From the NCBI RefSeq assembly GCF_003018235.1, contig NZ_CP027437.1: 64,000 nt of DNA; one strand, 5' to 3'. The DNA comes from Escherichia coli. Lineage in GTDB: Bacteria > Pseudomonadota > Gammaproteobacteria > Enterobacterales > Enterobacteriaceae. Made by a program: the position numbers and the translations under genes. The notes under the pieces are model-generated. The model had not been told where the DNA came from, did no database searches, and saw only the letters and a list, made by a program, of their open reading frames with translations. Below are positions 7,154 through 62,683 of this stretch, in pieces. The stretch's first letter is position 1. Each line of letters opens with the position of its first letter.

Positions 7154-7215
7154 CCTAAAGAATCAAGACGATCCGGTACGCGTGATTTTCTTTTCACATT
7201 AATCTGGTCAATAAC

Positions 7216-7243
7216 CTTGAATAATTGAGGGATGACCTCATTT
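7216..7243 (+). promoter_or_regulatory. Sigma32 heat-shock promoter of clpB (-35 CTTGAA, -10 CCTCATTT)
   Basis: Motif match to the sigma32 consensus, about 40 nt upstream of the clpB start. Confidence 0.6.
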
Positions 7244-7282
7244 AATCTCCAGTAGCAACTTTGATCCGTTATGGGAGGAGTT

Positions 7283-9856
7283 ATGCGTCTGGATCGTCTT
7301 ACTAATAAATTCCAGCTTGCTCTTGCCGATGCCCAATCACTTGCACTCGGGCACGACAACCAATTCATCGAACCACTTCATTTAATGAGCGCCCTGCTGA
7401 ATCAGGAAGGGGGTTCGGTTAGTCCTTTATTAACATCCGCTGGCATAAATGCTGGCCAGTTGCGCACAGATATCAATCAGGCATTAAATCGTTTACCGCA
7501 GGTTGAAGGTACTGGTGGTGATGTCCAGCCATCACAGGATCTGGTGCGCGTTCTTAATCTTTGCGACAAGCTGGCGCAAAAACGTGGTGATAACTTTATC
7601 TCGTCAGAACTGTTCGTTCTGGCGGCACTTGAGTCTCGCGGCACGCTGGCCGACATCCTGAAAGCAGCAGGGGCGACCACCGCCAACATTACTCAAGCGA
7701 TTGAACAAATGCGTGGAGGTGAAAGCGTGAACGATCAAGGTGCTGAAGACCAACGTCAGGCTTTGAAAAAATATACCATCGACCTTACCGAACGAGCCGA
7801 ACAGGGCAAACTCGATCCGGTGATTGGTCGTGATGAAGAAATTCGCCGTACCATTCAGGTGCTGCAACGTCGTACTAAAAATAACCCAGTACTGATTGGT
7901 GAACCCGGCGTCGGTAAAACTGCCATCGTTGAAGGTCTGGCGCAGCGTATTATCAACGGCGAAGTGCCGGAAGGGTTGAAAGGCCGCCGCGTACTGGCGC
8001 TGGATATGGGCGCGCTGGTGGCTGGGGCGAAATATCGCGGTGAGTTTGAAGAACGTTTAAAAGGCGTGCTTAACGATCTTGCCAAACAGGAAGGCAACGT
8101 CATCCTGTTTATCGACGAATTACATACCATGGTCGGCGCGGGTAAAGCCGATGGCGCAATGGACGCCGGAAACATGCTGAAACCGGCGCTGGCGCGTGGT
8201 GAATTGCACTGCGTAGGTGCCACGACGCTTGACGAATATCGCCAGTACATCGAAAAAGATGCTGCGCTGGAACGTCGTTTCCAGAAAGTGTTTGTTGCCG
8301 AGCCTTCTGTTGAAGATACCATTGCGATTCTGCGTGGCCTGAAAGAACGTTACGAATTGCACCACCATGTGCAAATTACTGACCCGGCAATTGTTGCAGC
8401 GGCGACGTTGTCTCATCGCTACATTGCTGACCGTCAGCTGCCGGATAAAGCCATCGACCTGATCGATGAAGCAGCATCCAGCATTCGTATGCAGATCGAC
8501 TCAAAACCAGAAGAACTCGACCGACTCGATCGTCGTATCATCCAGCTTAAACTGGAACAACAGGCGTTAATGAAAGAGTCTGATGAAGCCAGTAAAAAAC
8601 GCCTGGATATGCTCAACGAAGAACTGAGCGACAAAGAACGTCAGTACTCCGAGTTAGAAGAAGAGTGGAAAGCAGAGAAAGCATCGCTTTCTGGTACACA
8701 GACCATTAAAGCGGAACTGGAACAGGCGAAAATCGCTATTGAACAGGCTCGCCGTGTGGGTGACCTGGCGCGGATGTCTGAACTGCAATACGGCAAAATC
8801 CCGGAACTGGAAAAGCAACTGGAAGCCGCAACGCAGCTCGAAGGCAAAACTATGCGTCTGTTGCGTAATAAAGTGACCGATGCCGAAATTGCTGAAGTGC
8901 TGGCGCGTTGGACGGGGATTCCGGTTTCTCGCATGATGGAAAGCGAGCGCGAAAAACTGCTGCGTATGGAGCAAGAGCTGCACCATCGCGTTATTGGTCA
9001 GAACGAAGCGGTTGATGCGGTATCTAACGCTATTCGTCGTAGCCGTGCGGGGCTGGCGGATCCAAATCGCCCGATTGGTTCATTCCTGTTCCTCGGCCCA
9101 ACGGGTGTGGGGAAAACTGAGCTTTGTAAGGCGCTGGCGAACTTTATGTTTGATAGCGACGAGGCGATGGTCCGTATCGATATGTCCGAGTTTATGGAGA
9201 AACACTCGGTGTCTCGTCTGGTTGGTGCGCCTCCGGGATATGTCGGTTATGAAGAAGGTGGCTACCTGACCGAAGCGGTGCGTCGTCGTCCGTATTCCGT
9301 CATCCTGCTGGATGAAGTGGAAAAAGCGCATCCGGATGTCTTCAACATTCTGTTGCAGGTACTGGATGATGGGCGTCTGACTGACGGGCAGGGGAGAACG
9401 GTCGACTTCCGTAATACGGTTGTCATTATGACCTCTAACCTCGGTTCCGATTTGATTCAGGAACGCTTCGGTGAACTGGATTATGCGCACATGAAAGAGC
9501 TGGTGCTCGGTGTGGTAAGCCATAACTTCCGTCCGGAATTCATTAACCGTATCGATGAAGTGGTGGTCTTCCATCCGCTGGGTGAACAGCACATTGCGTC
9601 GATTGCGCAGATTCAGTTGAAACGTCTGTACAAACGTCTGGAAGAACGTGGTTATGAAATCCACATTTCTGACGAGGCGCTGAAACTGCTGAGCGAGAAC
9701 GGTTACGATCCGGTCTATGGTGCACGTCCTCTGAAACGTGCTATCCAGCAGCAGATCGAAAACCCGCTGGCACAGCAAATACTGTCTGGTGAATTGGTTC
9801 CGGGTAAAGTTATTCGCCTGGAAGTTAATGAAGACCGGATTGTCGCCGTCCAGTAA
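7283..9856 (+). CDS. clpB: Disaggregase chaperone ClpB (AAA+); internal GTG at 7727 (codon 149) is the known start of the short ClpB isoform
   Basis: 857 aa from the ATG at 7283 (GGGAGGAG Shine-Dalgarno); the ORF track begins 4 codons earlier at 7271; two Walker A motifs. Confidence 0.95.
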
Positions 9857-10297: not shown

Positions 10298-11839
<1,542 letters not shown>

Positions 11840-11924
11840 CCTTAAAGAACTGTGCTTTGCAGTGCTCACACAGATTGTCTGATGAAAAGTGAAAAGCAAG
11901 GCGTCTTGCGAAGCAGACTGATAC

Positions 11925-12000
11925 GTCCCCTTCGTCTAGAGGCCCAGGACACCGCCCTTTCACGGCGGTAACAGGGGTTCGAATCCCCTAGGGGACGCCA
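11925..12000 (+). tRNA. gltW: tRNA-Glu (UUC) in the 16S-23S spacer
   Basis: GTCCCCTTCGTCTAGAGG ... GGGGACGCCA, 76 nt ending in CCA. Confidence 0.95.
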
Positions 12001-12193
12001 CTTGCTGGTTTGTGAGTGAAAGTCACCTGCCTTAATATCTCAAAACTCATCTTCGGGTGACGTTTGAGATATTTGCTCTTTAAAAATCTGGATCAAGCTG
12101 AAAATTGAAACACTGAACAACGAAAGTTGTTCGTGAGTCTCTCAAATTTTCGCAACACGATGATGAATCGAAAGAAACATCTTCGGGTTGTGA

Positions 12194-15097
<2,904 letters not shown>

Positions 15098-15189
15098 ACA
15101 ACGCCGAAGCTGTTTTGGCGGATGAGAGAAGATTTTCAGCCTGATACAGATTAAATCAGAACGCAGAAGCGGTCTGATGAAACAGAATT

Positions 15190-15309
15190 TGCCTGGCGGC
15201 CTTAGCGCGGTGGTCCCACCTGACCCCATGCCGAACTCAGAAGTGAAACGCCGTAGCGCCGATGGTAGTGTGGGGTCTCCCCATGCGAGAGTAGGGAACT
15301 GCCAGGCAT
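15190..15309 (+). rRNA. rrfG: 5S ribosomal RNA
   Basis: TGCCTGGCGGC ... GCCAGGCAT; 120 nt. Confidence 0.97.
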
Positions 15310-17295: not shown

Positions 17296-18651
17296 TTACA
17301 GGATGCGGCTAATTAATCGGTCGATGCGGATACGGCGCAAACGACGGATGAGTTTACGAACCTTCACCGGATAATCGGCAATACTTTGCAGATCGCGATA
17401 GTGCTTAACGATGGTGGTATGCTCGCGGATCAGCTCCAGTTCTTTCTCTCGCTGTGGCGCAAGCTCCAGTTGCGGATCGTGGATCAAAATGGCGTTTTCC
17501 AGATCCAGACGCCAGGCGCGCGGGTTCAGGTTATTACCAGTGATCAACATCCACTTATCATCAACCCACATCCCTTTCAGGTGATAGGTGTTGTCGTCAT
17601 CTTTCCATAACCGAACCACTAACTGGTCAGTGTTGACGTAATACTGTAAACGGCTCAGGAAACGACGCAGATTGATCTCATAGAGATAAGGCAATGCGCC
17701 AATTATCTTGAAAGGTTCATCTTCCGGAATGTAGAAGTCATTCGCGGTTTTATCACCAACAATAATTTCGACCTTTTTCCCTTCGCGCAGCAACTGGATG
17801 ATATTGCGCACAAGGATTGCTGGCAGGTTGAAGTATGGCGTACAGATGGTTAGTTTCTGCTCGGCACAAGGCATAAGGTGGAAAATGGTCTTGTTTAACA
17901 GACTCGATTTCCCCAGTCCCACTAGCGGCGTTACGGAAAGCTGATCGTTGTCGGCATCGCCCTGGAAATGATAAGCGGCATCACGCAGCTCCTGGCGGAA
18001 CAGACGAATATCGTTCTTGATTTCCGGGCTTTTTGGCCGATTAACATCATCCAGACGATTAACGCCGCGGCCATTCATAATATTCTGTGTAACCCATTCA
18101 AACATAATGTCTGACATCTTACGGTTACGGATCAGATGATAACGGTCGTAGCGATATTTATCGTGCTGATGCAGGTAAACATCGTTCAGGCTGGCACCGC
18201 TATAAAGTACGCTATCGTCGATGATAAAGCCTTTAAAGTGCAGAACACCAAGGGCTTCACGGGTATTGATTGGAACGCCATAAACCGGAACATCTACGCC
18301 CGGATTTTCCTGCGCCATGCGGCAGTACCAGTCAGCGTTAGTGTTAGATGCCGCAGCGCCAATGCGTCCACGTTGTGCACGATGCCAGTCGACCAGCACC
18401 CGCACATCCAGTTCCGGACGCTGCCTTTTAGCCTCATACAACGCGTTCAGAATGCCTTTGCCACCGTCATCCTGTTCGAGATACAGGGCGACAATGCAAA
18501 TGCGCTGCTTCGCGCTGGCTATTTTTTCCAGCAGCGTCTCCCGGAAGTCGGCGGGAGCGTAAAAGAAATCGACATCATCAACTGATTGAGAAATCTTGGG
18601 TAGTTGGGCAAGGTGTTGTTGATGTTTATTACGCTTAAATTTTGACAACAT
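17296..18651 (-). CDS. pssA: CDP-diacylglycerol-serine O-phosphatidyltransferase (phosphatidylserine synthase, PLD superfamily)
   Basis: 451 aa from the second Met; two HKD motifs. Confidence 0.95.
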   Translation of the reverse strand: MLSKFKRNKHQQHLAQLPKISQSVDDVDFFYAPADFRETLLEKIASAKQRICIVALYLEQDDGGKGILNALYEAKRQRPELDVRVLVDWHRAQRGRIGAAASNTNADWYCRMAQENPGVDVPVYGVPINTREALGVLHFKGFIIDDSVLYSGASLNDVYLHQHDKYRYDRYHLIRNRKMSDIMFEWVTQNIMNGRGVNRLDDVNRPKSPEIKNDIRLFRQELRDAAYHFQGDADNDQLSVTPLVGLGKSSLLNKTIFHLMPCAEQKLTICTPYFNLPAILVRNIIQLLREGKKVEIIVGDKTANDFYIPEDEPFKIIGALPYLYEINLRRFLSRLQYYVNTDQLVVRLWKDDDNTYHLKGMWVDDKWMLITGNNLNPRAWRLDLENAILIHDPQLELAPQREKELELIREHTTIVKHYRDLQSIADYPVKVRKLIRRLRRIRIDRLISRIL

Positions 18652-18764
18652 CACAGTGCATTTCTTCTCTGTTCATTGAAGGGTCCTCTGTGCAATGCAG
18701 ACGACATAAGCGGGCAATAATAACACCAGTCCCGATTAAGTGGTCAACATTTCCAGTACCTTAC

Positions 18765-21425
18765 TCATGATTCCTCGCGCTGGGCAAGATTTAGCGTAAG
18801 CCCAACGATCCCCTCTTCGAGCTGGATATCAACGTTAAACCCGAGCTTGCGGGCCAGCGCCACCATGCCACGATTGTTTGGCATCGTAATACCATTCAGA
18901 CGTTGTAGTCCGTGATCTCGCGTATAGGTAATCAACTTTTCCATTAAGCGTCGACCTAAGCCTAACCCTTTGAGATCCGAGCGAACCAGCACGGCAAATT
19001 CGGCATCGATGTTATCAGGGTCGGAGATCGCACGCGTGACGCCGAGGATCTCTTCCGTTTGTTCAATACGTCGTACTGCTACAAACGCCATTTCCCGATC
19101 GTAGTCGATCTGCGTCATGTTGGCTAAATCTTCATGGGTAAATTCGTTGATCTCGCTAAAGTAGCGGTAATAAAGATCTTCTTTGGTGACTCGCGAAATG
19201 AATTGCTGAAGTTGTGGCTCATCTTCTGGCAAAATCGGGCGGAACAAGCAGCGTTCACCGTTTTTCAATTCTACCCATTCTTCCAGCTGATGCGGATAAG
19301 GGCGCACTGCCAGCCGACTCTCGTTATCGCCTTCAAACGGCGCGATATCCAGCGTGACATCCAGCGCGGTAAATTCACTGCCAGAAGCCAGCAAAGGATG
19401 AATATCCAGACGCTGAATTTCCGGGCAATCGACAATCAAGTTAGAAACCTGCACCAGAAGCTGGCTCAAGCCTGCAACATCTAATGGGCGTAGCGCACTG
19501 CGCGCACGAATCTTTTTACTTTTGATCCCCTGAATAACCAGATAGCGGGCCAGGTTCATGTTCAGCGGCGGTAGTGCGACGACGGCTTGATCTTCAGGAC
19601 GCCACTCCACACCGCCTTCGCCCAGCATGATCAACGGCCCGAAAACCGGATCGTGCTCAACCACAACCCGCAACTCCTGAGCGCCAGCACGGTTAGCCAT
19701 ACTTTGCACCAACAGGCCGTGGATCCGCGCCTGCGGCCAGGCCATTTTTACGCGATCGAAAATAGCGTTTGCCGCTTGCTGGACTTCATTAGCTGTACGC
19801 AGGTAGAGCATTACGCCCTGAACTTCCGATTTATGTGGAATATCCGGCGAACGCAATTTCAGCGCCACCGGATAACCAATCTGTTCGGCAATATGCACCG
19901 CTTCGGTGCTATCGCTGGCAATCCAGGTGGGGAGCGTGTTCATGCCATACGCTTGCAGGATGGGCTGAACTTCATGGGTATCGAGCGACGTAGCCCCTTC
20001 GGCAATCGCCTGTTGCAACAGAAGATGTGCTTCTGCGGTATTGGAGGTCAGATTGCTGGGCAACGCCGGCGTTTCGCGTAGTTGCTTCTGATTACGTCGG
20101 TACTCCACCATATGCATAAAAGCAGTGATGGTTCCTTCCGGCGTGCGATAGGTCGGCAGCCCGGCTTCACTGAATAATCGTCGTGCCTCTTGAGAGGAGT
20201 GCTCGCCGCACCAGTTCGTCAGCAGAGAAACATACTTGCTGCGGGGATGATGCTTTACCGCTTCAATTAATACTTGCGCGCTTTCTGTTGCGGGAGCAGC
20301 GGCGCTGGGCGAATGAATAACCATCAGCGCATCAAAATCCTGGCTGTGGAGCAGAATGTCCAGCGTTTTGACATAATGCTCGCTGCTGGCGTCATCGCGT
20401 AGATCGAGCGGGTTAGAGACTGCCACATGTTCTGGCAGTGCATCGCGCAGTTTCTGGCAGGTTTCTTCGCTTAGTGTTGCCAGCTTGCCATTGCGTGACC
20501 ATAAGGCATCCAGCGCCAGCGCGGCAGGCGCAGCACCGTTGCTGATAATCATCAACCGGTCGCCACGCAGCGGGCGCATATGGCTAAGGGTTTCTACCGC
20601 CGAAAACAGTTCGTGGGTGTCCTGTACCCGCAACAAACCGGCACGCTGAATAGCCGCATCCCACGCCGGATCCATTCCTGCCGTGGTGTTCAACAGACGT
20701 TGAGCCGCCGGGCTACGTCCGCTTTTAATCACCAGAATCGGTTTATTGCGAGAGGCACTACGGGCCGCCGAAACAAAGCGTCGCGCGTCGCTTAACTGTT
20801 CGAGATAGAGCAGGATGGCGCTGGTTTTACTGTCGCGCGCCAGATAGTCGAGCAATTCATCAACGTCGATATCCAGGCTGTCGCCGAGCGCAATAAAGTA
20901 GGAAAAGCCCATCTCACGCTGTTGCGCCCAGTCGAGGATGGTATTGGAGACGGCAGCCGATTGCGAAATAAACGCCAGCTTGCCGCGTTTAATCGGCACA
21001 GGTGAAAAGCTGGCATTTAGACCTTGCCAGGGAGCCAGTAAACCCAGACTGTTTGGTCCTAGCAGGCGCATGTTATGGCGCAGGGCGCAGGCGCGGAGAT
21101 CTTCGTGTTGCGATGCCGGGGCGGAAAGAATAATGCAGGTTTTACAGCCTTTCTCGCCGAGCTCTTCCAGAAGAGCAAGATTACGGCTGGCATTGGTACA
21201 TAAAACCGCAAGGTCGGGTGTAAAGGGCAAGCTGGCAATATCCGGCCAGGCCAACACACCCAACACCGCTTTCCAGGCAGGCGTCACCGGGAGTACCGGT
21301 CCGTTAAAGCCTCCCGCCAGCAGGTTACGCATCATCAGGTAACCTGCGCGATTGGGTTTCATCGATGCGCCAATTACCGCAATCGATTTTGGTCGCAGTA
21401 GTGCTTCCAGTCCTCGCTGACTCAT
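18765..21425 (-). CDS. patZ: Protein lysine acetyltransferase PatZ/Pka (CoA-binding/NDP-forming acyl-CoA synthetase-like domain plus GNAT domain)
   Basis: 886 aa with a C-terminal GNAT motif. Confidence 0.9.
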   Translation of the reverse strand: MSQRGLEALLRPKSIAVIGASMKPNRAGYLMMRNLLAGGFNGPVLPVTPAWKAVLGVLAWPDIASLPFTPDLAVLCTNASRNLALLEELGEKGCKTCIILSAPASQHEDLRACALRHNMRLLGPNSLGLLAPWQGLNASFSPVPIKRGKLAFISQSAAVSNTILDWAQQREMGFSYFIALGDSLDIDVDELLDYLARDSKTSAILLYLEQLSDARRFVSAARSASRNKPILVIKSGRSPAAQRLLNTTAGMDPAWDAAIQRAGLLRVQDTHELFSAVETLSHMRPLRGDRLMIISNGAAPAALALDALWSRNGKLATLSEETCQKLRDALPEHVAVSNPLDLRDDASSEHYVKTLDILLHSQDFDALMVIHSPSAAAPATESAQVLIEAVKHHPRSKYVSLLTNWCGEHSSQEARRLFSEAGLPTYRTPEGTITAFMHMVEYRRNQKQLRETPALPSNLTSNTAEAHLLLQQAIAEGATSLDTHEVQPILQAYGMNTLPTWIASDSTEAVHIAEQIGYPVALKLRSPDIPHKSEVQGVMLYLRTANEVQQAANAIFDRVKMAWPQARIHGLLVQSMANRAGAQELRVVVEHDPVFGPLIMLGEGGVEWRPEDQAVVALPPLNMNLARYLVIQGIKSKKIRARSALRPLDVAGLSQLLVQVSNLIVDCPEIQRLDIHPLLASGSEFTALDVTLDIAPFEGDNESRLAVRPYPHQLEEWVELKNGERCLFRPILPEDEPQLQQFISRVTKEDLYYRYFSEINEFTHEDLANMTQIDYDREMAFVAVRRIEQTEEILGVTRAISDPDNIDAEFAVLVRSDLKGLGLGRRLMEKLITYTRDHGLQRLNGITMPNNRGMVALARKLGFNVDIQLEEGIVGLTLNLAQREES

Positions 21426-22849: not shown

Positions 22850-23887
22850 ATGAACGATGAAATGAAAGGTAAAAGCGGCAAGGTCAAAGTGATGTATGTC
22901 CGCAGTGATGATGATTCTGATAAACGTACCCACAACCCGCGTACCGGGAAAGGGGGCGGGCGTCCAGGAAAATCTCGTGCTGACGGTGGCCGTCGCCCCG
23001 CCCGCGATGACAAACAGAGTCACCCCCGTGACCGCAAGTGGGAAGATTCGCCGTGGCGCACGGTTTCCCGCGCGCCGGGTGATGAGACGCCGGAAAAGGC
23101 CGATCACGGTGGCATCAGTGGTAAAAGTTTTATTGATCCGGAAGTTTTGCGTCGTCAACGTGCGGAAGAAACCCGCGTCTACGGCGAAAACGCCTGTCAG
23201 GCACTGTTCCAGAGCCGTCCGGAAGCGATTGTTCGCGCCTGGTTTATCCAGAGTGTAACGCCGCGTTTTAAAGAAGCCTTGCGCTGGATGGCAGCAAACC
23301 GCAAAGCGTACCATGTGGTAGATGAAGCGGAACTGACAAAAGCGTCAGGCACGGAACATCACGGCGGCGTTTGCTTCCTGATCAAAAAGCGTAATGGTAC
23401 AACCGTGCAGCAGTGGGTAAGCCAGGCAGGCGCGCAGGATTGTGTACTGGCGCTGGAAAACGAATCTAACCCGCATAACCTGGGCGGCATGATGCGTAGC
23501 TGTGCGCACTTCGGCGTGAAAGGTGTTGTGGTGCAGGATGCAGCACTGCTGGAGTCTGGGGCGGCTATCCGTACCGCAGAAGGCGGCGCAGAGCACGTTC
23601 AGCCGATTACTGGCGACAACATTGTTAACGTGCTGGATGATTTCCGTCAGGCGGGTTACACCGTAGTGACAACTTCCAGCGAGCAGGGGAAACCGCTGTT
23701 CAAAACCAGCCTGCCAGCGAAAATGGTACTGGTGCTGGGTCAGGAATATGAAGGGTTACCGGATGCCGCACGCGATCCGAACGATCTGCGCGTGAAGATT
23801 GACGGTACGGGCAACGTTGCCGGGCTGAATATCTCTGTTGCAACCGGCGTTTTGCTTGGTGAATGGTGGCGTCAGAATAAAGCCTGA
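22850..23887 (+). CDS. yfiF: SpoU/TrmH-family RNA methyltransferase YfiF with a basic N-terminal extension
   Basis: 345 aa from the ATG at 22850 (MNDEMKGK...); the ORF track starts 25 codons upstream. Confidence 0.85.
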
Positions 23888-23934: not shown

Positions 23935-24624
23935 TTACTCACTCTCTGCCGGTAATACTGGCATCCAGTCAATCGGCGTCTCGCCATGTTGTTCCAGCCA
24001 CTGATTTGCCAGCACAAAATGGTTACAGCCAAAGAATCCACGATGCGCAGAAAGCGGTGACGGATGCGGTGCTTTCAGTACGTGATGGCGTTGCTTATCT
24101 ATAATCGCCCCTTTCTTTTGCGCATGCGATCCCCACAACAAAAACACCACGCCTTCGCGATGCTGGTTAATCAGGCTGATGACTTTATCAGTAAACGTCT
24201 CCCAACCGAGGCTGGCATGGGAATGCGCCTGACCTGCGCGAACCGTCAACACAGTATTGAGTAGCAGAACGCCCTGACGCGCCCAGCTTTCAAGATAACC
24301 ATGATTAGGGCGGGTGAAACCGGGAATAGTATTTTCCAGCTCTTTATACATATTCAGCAGTGACGGCGGTGTCGCAATGCCGGGGCGAACGGAAAATGCC
24401 AGACCATGCGCCTGTCCCGGTCCGTGATAAGGATCCTGGCCGAGAATCACCACTTTAACGTCACCCAACTCGGTAAAGCGGAACGCGTTAAAGACATCTT
24501 TTTGTGGTGGATAGATAGTGACGCCGGACTGCCGCTCGCTGGCGACGGTCTGTAGGGTATTAAGAAAATAGGGTTGTTGCTTCTCTTCAGCCAGCACGTC
24601 ATGCCAGGTTAATTCGTTTGCCAT
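23935..24624 (-). CDS. ung: Uracil-DNA glycosylase
   Basis: 229 aa; motifs GQDPYH and HPSPLS. Confidence 0.97.
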
Positions 24625-24806
24625 CTCGCTCTCCCGCGAATCTTCAATCCGCCTAGCTTAACTGCTTCTTTCTACAGAACAAAATCATGCTCATTTTTTA
24701 GACTTAAACGAGTGCAAAAAATGTAAATTGGTAAAATTTCACACCTGCATAAGTTGATGTAAAACAATAAAATCCATTTGCGACCATGCTTGATGTGTGG
24801 TTTTTA

Positions 24807-24820
24807 TTGATTTAAATCAA
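24807..24820 (+). promoter_or_regulatory. FNR/CRP-family binding site TTGAT-N4-ATCAA upstream of grcA
   Basis: Perfect palindrome TTGATTTAAATCAA about 110 nt upstream of the grcA start. Confidence 0.65.
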
Positions 24821-24927
24821 AGATTCAAGGGTGTTTGAGGAGTATATATACACTCAAGCAACAATGGTTTTACCAATTGGCCGCGACAGGCTGAACAAAT
24901 CAAATAATTTTGCCGGGGAGGCATCAC

Positions 24928-25311
24928 ATGATTACAGGTATCCAGATTACTAAAGCCGCTAACGACGATCTGCTGAACTCTTTCTGGCTGCTGGACAGCG
25001 AAAAAGGCGAAGCGCGTTGCATCGTTGCGAAAGCAGGTTTTGCAGAAGACGAAGTGGTTGCAGTAAGCAAACTGGGTGACATTGAGTACCGTGAAGTTCC
25101 AGTAGAAGTGAAACCAGAAGTTCGCGTTGAAGGTGGTCAACACCTGAACGTAAACGTTCTGCGTCGTGAAACTCTGGAAGATGCAGTTAAGCATCCGGAA
25201 AAATATCCGCAGCTGACCATCCGTGTATCCGGTTATGCAGTTCGCTTTAACTCTCTGACTCCGGAACAGCAGCGCGACGTTATCGCTCGTACCTTTACTG
25301 AAAGCCTGTAA
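24928..25311 (+). CDS. grcA: Autonomous glycyl radical cofactor (spare part for pyruvate formate-lyase)
   Basis: 127 aa, glycyl-radical motif RVSGYAV; ORF-track start trimmed by 6 codons. Confidence 0.95.
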
Positions 25312-25331
25312 GGCTTAAGTAGCAAGTTACT

Positions 25332-25363
25332 AAGCGGAAGAGGGCGACCTCTTCCGCTTTTTT
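25332..25363 (+). terminator. Hairpin terminator between grcA and eamB, apparently bidirectional
   Basis: AAGCGGAAGAGG / CCTCTTCCGCTT stem followed by TTTTTT. Confidence 0.75.
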
Positions 25364-25365
25364 CA

Positions 25366-25953
25366 TTAATAGAAAATGCGTACCGCGCAATAGACCAGCA
25401 GCAGCGCGAGCACGATATTTAACTGGCGACCATACTGGCGAAACAATCGCTGAAACAGGTGCCCCGCCAGCGCCCAGCACACATTGCCAAACGTCCCAAT
25501 CATCGCCAGCAAAACGCTGACGCCAATTACCCAGCTTAGCGCCTGCGTTTGCGGCAGGACAAACGTCGACAGTGCTGTAATGCCATACAAAATGATTTTG
25601 ACGTTCACAAACTGCAAAGCAAAGCTGGCCCAAAAACTGATTGGTTTTGTCTGAAGCCCATCTTCCTTTGTTGGACTGGTAGCGATTTTCCACGCCAGCC
25701 AGACAATATATGCCGCCCCCGCCCAACTCAACAGATGCACTGCTACCGGGTCGATAACAGCCAGTGAAAACGAAATGCCCGCGCATAGCAACATGACGAT
25801 TAAAAATCCCAGACTCATCCCTGCCAGCACGCGAGTACTCTGACGAAATCCGTGCGTTGTGGCTGAGCTAAGGGCGAGAATATTGTTCGGTCCTGGCGTC
25901 ATGGCGGTAATCAGGGTGTAAGTCCAAAAAGCACTTAAAAGGGTCGGTGTCAC
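25366..25953 (-). CDS. eamB: Cysteine/O-acetylserine exporter (LysE/RhtB family)
   Basis: 195 aa, polytopic membrane protein. Confidence 0.9.
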   Translation of the reverse strand: MTPTLLSAFWTYTLITAMTPGPNNILALSSATTHGFRQSTRVLAGMSLGFLIVMLLCAGISFSLAVIDPVAVHLLSWAGAAYIVWLAWKIATSPTKEDGLQTKPISFWASFALQFVNVKIILYGITALSTFVLPQTQALSWVIGVSVLLAMIGTFGNVCWALAGHLFQRLFRQYGRQLNIVLALLLVYCAVRIFY

Positions 25954-32446: not shown

Positions 32447-33402
32447 TGAAGCAACTTTGGTTTGCCATGTCATTAGTGACAGGTAGCCTGTTATTCTCTG
32501 CTAACGCCTCGGCCACTCCCGCGTCCGGGGCGTTATTACAGCAGATGAACCTGGCCAGTCAGTCACTGAATTACGAGCTGTCATTCATCAGCATCAATAA
32601 ACAGGGTGTTGAGTCTCTGCGTTATCGACATGCACGCCTCGATAACCGTCCTCTTGCACAATTGTTGCAAATGGATGGCCCGCGCCGGGAAGTGGTACAG
32701 CGCGGCAATGAAATCAGCTATTTTGAACCGGGACTTGAACCGTTCACGCTTAATGGCGATTACATTGTTGATTCTCTACCATCGCTCATCTATACCGATT
32801 TCAAACGCCTTTCTCCTTACTACGACTTTATCTCCGTCGGGCGCACGCGTATTGCTGATCGTCTTTGCGAAGTCATTCGTGTGGTTGCCCGAGATGGTAC
32901 ACGCTACAGCTACATCGTGTGGATGGACACCGAATCGAAATTACCGATGCGGGTTGATCTCCTTGATCGCGATGGTGAAACGCTGGAACAATTTCGCGTG
33001 ATTGCTTTTAATGTCAATCAGGATATCAGCAGCAGTATGCAGACGCTGGCGAAGGCAAATTTGCCGCCGTTGCTTTCTGTTCCTGTAGGTGAAAAAGCTA
33101 AATTCAGCTGGACGCCAACCTGGTTGCCACAGGGTTTTAGCGAAGTTTCCAGTAGTCGACGTCCGCTACCGACGATGGACAACATGCCTATCGAATCACG
33201 TCTCTATTCCGACGGATTATTCAGCTTCTCGGTAAACGTTAACCGCGCTACGCCATCGAGCACCGATCAGATGTTGCGCACCGGGCGCAGAACCGTCAGT
33301 ACAAGCGTACGTGATAACGCCGAAATCACCATTGTCGGTGAACTGCCGCCGCAAACGGCGAAACGCATTGCCGAGAATATTAAGTTCGGGGCAACGCAAT
33401 GA
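32446..33402 (+). CDS. rseB: SigmaE regulatory protein RseB (periplasmic)
   Basis: 318 aa; TAATG overlap with rseA. Confidence 0.95.
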   Translation: MKQLWFAMSLVTGSLLFSANASATPASGALLQQMNLASQSLNYELSFISINKQGVESLRYRHARLDNRPLAQLLQMDGPRREVVQRGNEISYFEPGLEPFTLNGDYIVDSLPSLIYTDFKRLSPYYDFISVGRTRIADRLCEVIRVVARDGTRYSYIVWMDTESKLPMRVDLLDRDGETLEQFRVIAFNVNQDISSSMQTLAKANLPPLLSVPVGEKAKFSWTPTWLPQGFSEVSSSRRPLPTMDNMPIESRLYSDGLFSFSVNVNRATPSSTDQMLRTGRRTVSTSVRDNAEITIVGELPPQTAKRIAENIKFGATQ

Positions 33403-33878
33403 TCAAAGAGTGGGCTACCGTCGTCTCCTGGGAAAACGGGCAGGCGCTGGTTAGTTGTGATGTTAAAGCCTCATGCAGCAGCTGCGCTTCACGTGCCGGT
33501 TGCGGTAGCCGCGTGTTGAATAAACTTGGCCCGCAAACCACGCATACCATTGTCGTACCCTGTGATGAGCCGTTAGTGCCGGGGCAAAAAGTAGAATTAG
33601 GAATCGCCGAAGGCAGCCTGCTTAGCTCCGCATTACTGGTTTATATGTCGCCGCTGGTGGGATTATTCCTCATCGCTTCACTATTTCAGCTACTCTTTGC
33701 TTCAGATATTGCAGCATTATGCGGTGCGATTCTCGGTGGCGTTGGTGGATTCCTGATTGCACGTGGCTGCTCTCGAAAGTTTGCTGCCCGGGCAGAATGG
33801 CAACCGATCATCTTAAGCGTGGCATTGCCGCCTGGCCTTGTGCGATTTGAAACATCTTCGGAAGACGCGAGCCAGTGA
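33399..33878 (+). CDS. rseC: RseC (SoxR-reducing system / sigmaE regulatory protein)
   Basis: 159 aa; ATGA overlap with rseB. Confidence 0.9.
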   Translation: MIKEWATVVSWENGQALVSCDVKASCSSCASRAGCGSRVLNKLGPQTTHTIVVPCDEPLVPGQKVELGIAEGSLLSSALLVYMSPLVGLFLIASLFQLLFASDIAALCGAILGGVGGFLIARGCSRKFAARAEWQPIILSVALPPGLVRFETSSEDASQ

Positions 33879-34075
33879 TTTCACTGGCTTTGTTGCATTT
33901 TGCATAACAAATGCGAGGACGTTTCCAGATACCACAATCCATACGGTATGAACATTTCCTCGCCTCAATGTTGTAGTGTAGAATGCGGCGTTTCTATTAA
34001 TACAGACGTTAAGCTCAGAACAGCGACTTCTAAAAGCCTGGTTAACCGGGCATTAAGGCACAATAATCATACTTT

Positions 34076-35875
<1,800 letters not shown>

Positions 35876-36915: not shown

Positions 36916-37107
36916 TTATGAGATAAATCTCCCGTGGCTAACGACATCCCCCGTCGTTGTGTATAGAATATTCCCCCGAAGTTTAAGGTTGGCACCTCCA
37001 GGTTGCCACGGCACACGAAACAGCGTTGGTCCCCATATACCGGTAAACTGAAACTGCAGCGAAGCAGTTAGCAGAACCATGTATATCAGGTCTGTTTCGT
37101 GTGCTGA

Positions 37108-38720
<1,613 letters not shown>

Positions 38721-40583: not shown

Positions 40584-40605
40584 AAAAATACCGTTCTCTT
40601 TATAA

Positions 40606-40680
40606 AGTAAAACCCCCGAACTGGTAAGGAACGGGGGTTTTCACTTTACAACTTTAATTTTGTGCAGCACACGATTCCAA
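40606..40680 (-). ncRNA. ohsC: Putative OhsC antisense sRNA (antitoxin of shoB); extent approximate
   Basis: Known K-12 arrangement (divergent from shoB); minus-strand terminator at 40608..40641 and a candidate -10 CATAAT about 40689..40694; boundaries are inferred. Confidence 0.3.
40608..40641. terminator. Bidirectional hairpin terminator (acpS on +; presumed ohsC on -)
   Basis: CCCCCG / CGGGGG stem flanked by an A-run and a T-run. Confidence 0.7.
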
Positions 40681-41004
40681 CAGAAATGATTATGGATCAA
40701 TTTCGTTATCCTGTACAAGCAACTTGCAATCTCTGACATAAAAAACGCGAGCCTTTACGAAGAAATCGACATTGATAAAAAGATTAACGTGACCGCTTTT
40801 TGATAAGTACATTAAAATCGGTTTCGTTATTGGCAATTTTGCTGTGCTTTACACCATGCCACTGAATTCCCCCATTGAAACGAGTGGTGTCGTCAAAGCT
40901 CTGGTGTGGAGTGCAGCACTCGATTCCAATAACTCGCACGTTCAGTTTTGGGGAGATGTAAGGGCTAATCTGAACGGCTGCATTCCTTGTTTAAGGAAAA
41001 ACGA

Positions 41005-49860: not shown

Positions 49861-50050
49861 AGTGGCTCATTCACCGACTTATGTCAGCCCCTTCGGGACG
49901 TGCTACATAAAATTCGAATGACGCACAACAAGGTGCCTGCCGTCCAACTTCTGATATCAGCGTAGCTATATCAACCATCGGGCGAAACGTCGAGTTAGGC
50001 ACCGCCTTATTCCATAACAAAGCCGGGTAATTCCCGGCTTTGTTGTATCT
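49861..50050 (+). ncRNA. glmY: GlmY small RNA (regulator of glmS via GlmZ/RapZ)
   Basis: Starts AGTGGCTCATTCACCGACTTATGTCAGCCCCTTCGGG as recalled for GlmY; ends at the terminator AAAGCCGGGTAATTCCCGGCTTTGTT. Confidence 0.85.
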
Positions 50051-55366: not shown

Positions 55367-55394
55367 ATGGTCTTCCTTTTTTTGCATCTTAATT

Positions 55395-55415
55395 GATGTA
55401 TCTCAAATGCATCTT
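55395..55415 (-). promoter_or_regulatory. NsrR operator in the hmp promoter (AAGATGCATTTGAGATACATC on the minus strand)
   Basis: Matches the well-known hmp NsrR site as recalled. Confidence 0.7.
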
Positions 55416-61699: not shown

Positions 61700-62683
61700 A
61701 TGCCTAAAAAAATGAGAACAACCCGTAATCTATTATTAATGGCTACGCTATTAGGTAGCGCACTATTTGCCAGGGCTGCGGATAAAGAAATGACCATTGG
61801 CGCAATATACCTTGATACCCAGGGATATTACGCTGGCGTGCGTCAGGGCGTTCAGGATGCGGCAAAAGATTCTTCAGTACAGGTACAGTTAATTGAAACT
61901 AACGCCCAGGGTGATATTTCGAAAGAAAGTACCTTTGTTGATACCCTCGTGGCGCGTAATGTCGATGCCATTATTTTATCGGCAGTGTCTGAAAATGGCA
62001 GTAGCCGTACCGTTCGTCGCGCCAGTGAAGCGGGTATTCCGGTTATTTGCTACAACACCTGTATTAATCAAAAGGGGGTCGATAAATATGTCTCGGCGTA
62101 TCTGGTCGGCGATCCGCTGGAATTTGGTAAAAAACTGGGTAATGCTGCCGCCGATTATTTTATTGCCAACAAAATTGACCAGCCGAAAATTGCCGTTATC
62201 AATTGCGAAGCCTTTGAAGTTTGTGTGCAACGACGTAAAGGGTTTGAAGAAGTATTAAAAGCCCGTGTTCCCGGCGTGCAAATTGTCGCTAATCAGGAAG
62301 GGACTGTTTTAGATAAAGCGATTTCCGTTGGTGAAAAACTAATTATCTCCACGCCGGATCTCAACGCCATTATGGGCGAATCGGGCGGTGCGACACTCGG
62401 CGCGGTAAAAGCGGTACGTAATCAAAATCAGGCCGGAAAAATTGCTGTTTTCGGTTCGGATATGACAACCGAAATTGCTCAGGAGCTGGAAAACAATCAG
62501 GTGCTGAAAGCGGTAGTGGATATTTCCGGTAAGAAAATGGGCAATGCTGTTTTCGCGCAAACTTTGAAGGTTATCAATAAACAAGCCGACGGTGCAAAAG
62601 TGATTCAGGTGCCTATCGATCTCTATACCAAAACGGAAGACGGTAAACAGTGGCTGGCAACGCACGTTGATAGTCTGCCCTAA
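61700..62683 (+). CDS. yphF: ABC transporter periplasmic sugar-binding protein (LacI/RbsB-type fold) YphF
   Basis: 327 aa with signal peptide. Confidence 0.85.
   Translation: MPKKMRTTRNLLLMATLLGSALFARAADKEMTIGAIYLDTQGYYAGVRQGVQDAAKDSSVQVQLIETNAQGDISKESTFVDTLVARNVDAIILSAVSENGSSRTVRRASEAGIPVICYNTCINQKGVDKYVSAYLVGDPLEFGKKLGNAAADYFIANKIDQPKIAVINCEAFEVCVQRRKGFEEVLKARVPGVQIVANQEGTVLDKAISVGEKLIISTPDLNAIMGESGGATLGAVKAVRNQNQAGKIAVFGSDMTTEIAQELENNQVLKAVVDISGKKMGNAVFAQTLKVINKQADGAKVIQVPIDLYTKTEDGKQWLATHVDSLP

Follow-up and report, generated by a model that had tools for sequence, protein, structure and literature searches.

The [4Fe-4S] form of FNR becomes dimeric in the absence of oxygen and makes direct contact with RNA polymerase when bound at class II positions. 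The class II promoters of narK, nirB, dmsA and narG have FNR centred at -41.5, on a TTGAT-N4-ATCAA site that lies over the -35 region and is needed for anaerobic activation. The grcA (formerly yfiD) promoter found in the 64 kb stretch of Escherichia coli DNA analysed here (hereafter the window) likewise carries such a site, TTGATTTAAATCAA, over its -35 region; unlike those promoters it has an extra, damping FNR site upstream and a microaerobic optimum, and the centre of its activating site is quoted as -40.5, not -41.5. Another relative is focA-pflB, the operon of the partner enzyme, which shares with grcA the pyruvate formate-lyase pathway, the co-regulation by FNR and ArcA, and an FNR site at the class II position -40.5. 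Unlike grcA, however, focA-pflB has multiple promoters and an IHF-dependent architecture, and to our knowledge no damping site at -93.5 has been reported for it. In strength of match, the near-consensus sites of narK and nirB score 17.06, as against 17.25 at grcA (Myers 2013, Table S6). A likeness also exists with the tandem-site CRP promoters, in which, as at yfiD, a second activator dimer bound upstream lowers output (PMC3445967); yfiD differs in that the protein is FNR and in that the effect is reported to be independent of the alpha C-terminal domain (PMC3445967).

The yfiD promoter of E. coli K-12 (Green, Baldwin & Richardson 1998; Marshall 2001; Wyborn 2002) is at the same locus and is itself the element found in the window, and its coordinates correspond one-to-one to those of the window. 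The two 14-mers, their 53 bp spacing, the -10 element, the leader and the start codon are identical, and only strain-level differences outside the sites set the two sequences apart. The title of the 1998 paper names FNR positions -40.5 and -93.5 at yfiD, and Green 1998 and Marshall 2001, as cited in later papers, describe an upstream FNR site that down-regulates and an expression that peaks microaerobically. When the Green and Marshall constructs were reproduced, mutation of the upstream site (FNR II), or deletion of the DNA upstream of the position corresponding to 24794, raised anaerobic output (PMC10208419), and suppression of activation by upstream-bound FNR at yfiD is also described elsewhere (PMC3445967). 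ArcA enhances yfiD expression, apparently through interference with FNR at the upstream site, and PdhR represses it, a repression that is lifted by pyruvate.

The window is E. coli chromosomal DNA: the 1.1 kb around the palindrome is matched in 5,425 of the 5,426 complete genomes of the species, and the genes annotated under the match are ung, grcA and eamB. ung (23935-24624, minus strand, start codon at 24624) is divergent from grcA, and eamB lies downstream of grcA on the minus strand. The coding sequence of grcA (24928..25311, plus strand; 127 aa) is taken from the open reading frame listing and the RefSeq annotation of the matching genomes; its product, the autonomous glycyl-radical cofactor, has a Pfam Gly_radical domain (E = 3.8e-19) and is 100% identical to GrcA of E. 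coli and of E. albertii. The annotation in 5,425 of the 5,426 genomes, together with this domain, confirms the identification of the downstream gene as that of the glycyl-radical spare-part protein, as the earlier note had it. The ATG at 24928 makes 24927 the final base of the 5' leader. A Shine-Dalgarno sequence, GGAGG (24917..24921, plus strand), lies 6 nt 5' of the ATG and is invariant in nine Escherichia promoters, and a terminator scan places a strong intrinsic terminator at 25332..25359 on the plus strand, its GC-rich stem of 12 pairs leading into a T run. The ung-grcA intergenic region (306 bp) differs from that of K-12 by four substitutions or indels, none of which falls in the FNR sites, the -10 element or the leader, and from FNR II to the grcA ATG the sequence is that of K-12 except for one base between the sites. 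Among E. coli strains the intergenic region varies most at 24781-24799, between the FNR sites. An Rfam search found no RNA family in or near the grcA leader; elsewhere in the window it matched RyfD, a complete rRNA operon with tRNA, AsrC (antisense to rseC), the rncO leader, OhsC and GlmY (7164-7302, 10298-15307, 33363-34194, 36978-37192, 40604-40681 and 49861-50008), all expected for this region of E. coli. On the other side of ung, yfiF ends at 23887; an IS1397 inserted between yfiF and ung in MEI003 (18125-19473 of its locus), the complete genome closest over the grcA region (99.8%), is absent from the window.

The palindrome TTGATTTAAATCAA (24807..24820) has been published as FNR I, a site of the yfiD promoter, and the finding is therefore already known. 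Reading the sequence bears out the exact TTGAT-N4-ATCAA match claimed in the earlier note, and TTGATTTAAATCAA is the sole perfect match to this consensus within the 64 kb. Its centre, at 24813.5, corresponds to -40.5 and lies 114 bp upstream of the A of the grcA ATG, making it the class II activating site; the site is the same in K-12 and in eight other Escherichia promoters. The score quoted above for TTGATTTAAATCAA (PatSer 17.25) is the top score of the genome-wide K-12 table of Myers 2013 (Table S6), where the site is at an FNR ChIP-seq peak; a footnote to that table gives the coordinate as the 'center' of each site, whereas our mapping shows it to be the first base of the 14-mer. The same study places yfiD among the operons directly activated by FNR, with a site at -40.5 and a ChIP-seq peak, and yfiD was also FNR-activated in two earlier transcriptome studies. 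An FNR ChIP-chip peak has been reported at yfiD/ung as well (Grainger 2007). There is hardly any doubt that the region of TTGATTTAAATCAA is the FNR-dependent promoter of grcA/yfiD, and no evidence to the contrary came up. The present analysis contributes the sequence, the matrix rank, the identity to K-12, the mapping to the published sites and start, and the conservation across species of both sites, of their spacing and of the -10 element; FNR occupancy, FNR-dependent expression, the sign of the effect of each site and the regulation by ArcA and PdhR come from published work.

We scanned the window with a symmetrised FNR matrix of 24 columns derived from the 32 ChIP-chip motifs of the new targets of Grainger 2007, none of which comes from yfiD. 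FNR I ranks first of 63,977 positions with 23.76 bits, which is above the best training site, while the top score across 30 shuffled windows is 17.84. The second rank is taken by FNR II, at 24754-24767, with 19.69 bits, and the third by TTGATGTATCTCAA (55393-55406), which lies between hmp and glyA, some 25 bp ahead of the hmp start. TTGATGTATCTCAA is the known hmp FNR box and thus a positive control of the scan; it is predicted, without a ChIP-seq peak, in Table S6 of Myers 2013. The fourth match, TTGAAGGTTATCAA at 62564-62577, has 13.95 bits, about the mean of the per-window maxima of the shuffles. The FNR/CRP weight-matrix scan suggested in the earlier note thus puts the palindrome first for FNR, and the CRP consensus, at up to two mismatches, has no match at either grcA site.

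With one mismatch allowed, TTGAT-N4-ATCAA is matched six times in the window, against 2.08 expected. One of the six is TTGATGTAAAACAA (24754..24767), the lower-affinity, down-regulating FNR II site; its centre, at 24760.5 (-93.5), precedes that of FNR I by exactly 53 bp, on the same helical face, and the site falls 23 bp outside the range covered by the earlier note. Table S6 of Myers 2013 lists it as its reverse complement, TTGTTTTACATCAA, with a PatSer score of 13.87, at 53 bp from FNR I and within the same ChIP-seq peak. Moreover, primer m097, with which the 'FNR II' mutant is made, alters both halves of 24754-24767, at the G of TTGAT and at the C of AACAA (PMC10208419). Both FNR I and FNR II are unchanged in all nine Escherichia promoters compared.

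The start of transcription was placed by mapping published coordinates to the window (genome coordinate = 2739399 minus window coordinate). The supplementary tables of Park 2013 list the 32-mer TGGTAAAACCATTGTTGCTTGAGTGTATATAT at -10/+22 (2714524-2714555), the reverse complement of which is window 24844-24875; +1, a literature value, is therefore 24854 on the plus strand, with a leader of 74 nt. Because +1 is at 24854 the centre of FNR I is at -40.5, in agreement with Myers 2013. Start-site mapping, on which the earlier note had made its reading depend, thus leaves the palindrome at a position compatible with class II activation. Base 24854 is a T, and the geometry of the -10 element would suit 24855 equally, in which case the site is at -41.5; the aerobic sigma-70 ChIP peak at 2714546 corresponds to window position 24853. 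The grcA promoter has class II geometry, its site lying near -41.5 and overlapping the -35 region. Downstream of FNR I, the -10 hexamer is TATATA (24843..24848, plus strand). A scan of 24600-25400 with the sigma-70 consensus found no complete promoter and no recognisable -35 element, the position of which is occupied by FNR I. Since activator-dependent promoters do without a -35 element, they do not match the sigma-70 consensus, and the scan is thus uninformative but fits activator dependence. The three bases before the TATA (24840-24842) read TGn, an extended -10, in most other genera, and GAG or GGG in Escherichia and Citrobacter; GAG or GGG in place of TGn suggests that the Escherichia and Citrobacter promoters should depend more on FNR.

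A search with GrcA, one genome per species, gave 80 loci (the best 80 of 574 hits) from the Enterobacterales and Pasteurellales; the species are related. Among these best 80 of 574 hits, an FNR site with no more than one mismatch is found within 250 bp upstream of grcA in 77 species, against about 2 expected; 46 of the species have a perfect site and 31 a site with one mismatch, the corresponding numbers for shuffled upstream DNA being about 0.06 and 1.9. In 61 of the same 80 species (again the best 80 of 574 hits) a second site is present at a spacing of 52-53 bp, the spacing being 53 bp in the 56 species that were aligned and 52 bp in six more. The alignment of the 56 sequences is ungapped, holds the 53 bp spacing only and is anchored on the FNR sites, so that the invariance of the site cores, such as TTGA/TCAA of FNR I, is partly circular. 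The TATA at 24843-24846 is invariant as well, and begins 29.5 bp downstream of the FNR I centre in 56 of 56 species. Of the 56 species, 89% retain the mismatching A of FNR II (24764, in the AACAA half); the imperfect right half of the site is conserved across the Enterobacterales as AACAA, which becomes AACAT in Yersinia, Serratia and Hafnia, and so is the 53 bp spacing. Between the two sites most columns hold less than 0.7 bits, with a moderately conserved T-rich flank just upstream of FNR I. In an earlier comparative study, nine of the ten gamma-proteobacterial genomes had a predicted Fnr site upstream of yfiD (Ravcheev 2007). The segment between the sites also holds an inverted repeat (24782-24802), hairpin- or terminator-like, with TTGAT as its loop and a T run after it. 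Across 55 distinct species sequences, and with the structure derived from the window sequence, 59% of cells pair, against 38-44% in slid controls; the signal is weak and we do not judge the repeat to be a conserved element.

The grcA loci of seven Pasteurellaceae are arranged differently, with two FNR-like sites 42-44 bp apart, the better one upstream. These sites lie about 80-140 bp upstream of grcA and are followed by a near-consensus -35 element, TTGAAA, and an extended -10, TGATAAAAT; GTTAA repeats spaced by about 11 bp, resembling ArcA boxes, are found upstream of the FNR-like sites.

Taken as a bare 14-bp string, the palindrome might have arisen by chance in AT-rich intergenic DNA and have no regulatory role: shuffled windows are expected to hold 0.15 perfect TTGAT-N4-ATCAA matches and 14 of 100 contained at least one. 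The bare string is weakly improbable, suggestive rather than decisive. However, the score of the site with its flanks (23.76 bits) is above all shuffles, a second site lies at helical-phase spacing, the distance to the invariant -10 is fixed, and ChIP and expression data have been published; conservation in 77 of the 80 species sampled (the top 80 of 574 hits), where about 2 are expected, and the published occupancy have already refuted an accidental origin, the probability of which we consider negligible. A CRP (cAMP receptor protein) site in place of an FNR site is scarcely credible, even though the two proteins are homologous and bind related inverted repeats. FNR sites are told from CRP sites by the first base of each half, T in TTGA as against G in GTGA, and both halves of FNR I, reading TTGA...TCAA, have T, not G. 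A search of the window for TGTGA-N6-TCACA that tolerated two mismatches hit neither grcA site, and FNR occupancy in vivo and FNR-dependent expression have been published. The label 'yfiD/ung' given to the peak in ChIP tables could be taken to mean that the palindrome mainly serves the divergent ung, the start codon of which (24624) is about 190 bp away on the opposite strand, but the peak is so labelled because the intergenic region is common to both genes. On the contrary, the conserved -10, at its fixed distance of 29.5 bp, lies towards grcA, the site accompanies grcA in species that were sampled by the GrcA protein, and Myers 2013 assigns the regulation from -40.5 to yfiD and lists yfiD, not ung, among the activated operons. 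A main role at ung is therefore highly improbable, and the palindrome is best read as the FNR I site of grcA.

The earlier note had also pointed to a further TTGAT half-site at 24790..24794. The string is present, but the functional element it was thought to represent does not stand. The pentamer lies between both full sites, and the merged FNR ChIP-seq summit (2714605-7, window 24792-24794) is close to it, as might be expected of a third FNR contact that cooperates with the perfect site. That summit position, however, is also the one predicted from two sites centred at 24760.5 and 24813.5. The 14-mer that starts at 24790 has only 2.27 bits and ranks 474 with the FNR matrix, and TTGAT is common, since the window holds 192 TTGAT/ATCAA pentamers at a density of about 3 per kb. 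The half-site is polymorphic within E. coli, reading TCGAT in strains A24, TH9F11 and GN03551, and is not conserved across genera, its columns holding 0.95, 0.30, 0.16, 0.09 and 0.23 bits across the 56 species, that is, no more than 0.30 bits in four of five. Moreover, the 'yfiD-P1' promoter starts at window position 24794 and lacks the TTGA, yet is strong and oxygen-responsive (PMC10208419). We consider a functional third contact very unlikely: the half-site at 24790-24794 is a chance occurrence, and the true second element is FNR II, the full site described above (24754-24767).

Sequences downstream of the -10 element point to additional inputs. The 32-mer of Park 2013 that served to place the start is the predicted ArcA-P binding region (24844..24875, minus strand), with three direct-repeat elements over the -10 and the early leader, and the same study reports an ArcA ChIP peak at ung/yfiD. 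The leader also contains AATGGTTTTACCAAT (24863..24877, about +10 to +24), a palindrome that has one mismatch to the PdhR box ATTGGTNNNACCAAT and is the best match to it in the window. The box was grounded on a perfect palindrome in the promoter of pdhR itself, ATTGGTAAGACCAAT. Judged from sequence, with the exact box deduced here, AATGGTTTTACCAAT is a probable operator of the pyruvate-responsive repressor PdhR. The leader block CAACAATGGTTTTACCAATTGGC (24859-24881) is strongly conserved in the Enterobacterales; it contains the PdhR-like box and overlaps the predicted ArcA region. In K-12, the pdhR promoter itself carries ATGATTTCAATCAA (217-230 of the extracted locus) about 55 bp upstream of the perfect PdhR operator, and ATGATTTCAATCAA is listed among the FNR sites that coincide with a ChIP-seq peak (Myers 2013, Table S6). 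The presence of an FNR site and a PdhR operator at the pdhR promoter suggests that pdhR and grcA have in common an FNR-plus-PdhR combination.

We envisage that upon oxygen limitation FNR would gain its [4Fe-4S] cluster and dimerise, and that the dimer bound to TTGATTTAAATCAA at -40.5 would replace the missing -35 element and recruit RNA polymerase by direct contacts, as in class II activation, transcription beginning at about 24854 from the -10 hexamer TATATA. The weaker FNR II site at -93.5 would be filled only at high levels of active FNR, damping the promoter, and the maximum of expression would for that reason be microaerobic. ArcA and the pyruvate-responsive PdhR add further control, in the case of PdhR probably via the leader box. 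The anaerobic induction by FNR put forward in the earlier note has therefore to be qualified. Activation by FNR holds, in view of the site and the ChIP-seq data of Myers 2013, but simple anaerobic induction does not, because FNR at -93.5 suppresses activation from -40.5 and expression, through FNR II, peaks under microaerobic conditions.

Work since 1998 has characterised the FNR site of grcA together with its position, partner site and physiology. The site is included in the standard genome-wide data sets for FNR, and the yfiD promoter is already in use as an oxygen-responsive part in metabolic engineering (PMC10208419). The practical value of the finding is that of a positive control, in that the strongest FNR operator of the E. 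coli genome was correctly recognised from raw sequence in the earlier note. The present analysis also carries a lesson: isolated half-sites of 5 bp are not worth reporting, and what should be sought are full sites with one mismatch at helical-phase spacing.

The grcA promoter combines a perfect activating site with a braking site that departs from the consensus and lies precisely five helical turns further upstream, a design that can be described as a 'band-pass'. With 89% of the aligned species retaining the mismatching A of FNR II, and with the 52-53 bp spacing conserved, this design may be an ancient feature selected in the Enterobacterales; if true, this would be a comparative refinement of a known system, with no new mechanism. 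We advance it tentatively, as a possibility somewhat short of even, together with the possibility that the Pasteurellaceae have rewired the same gene.
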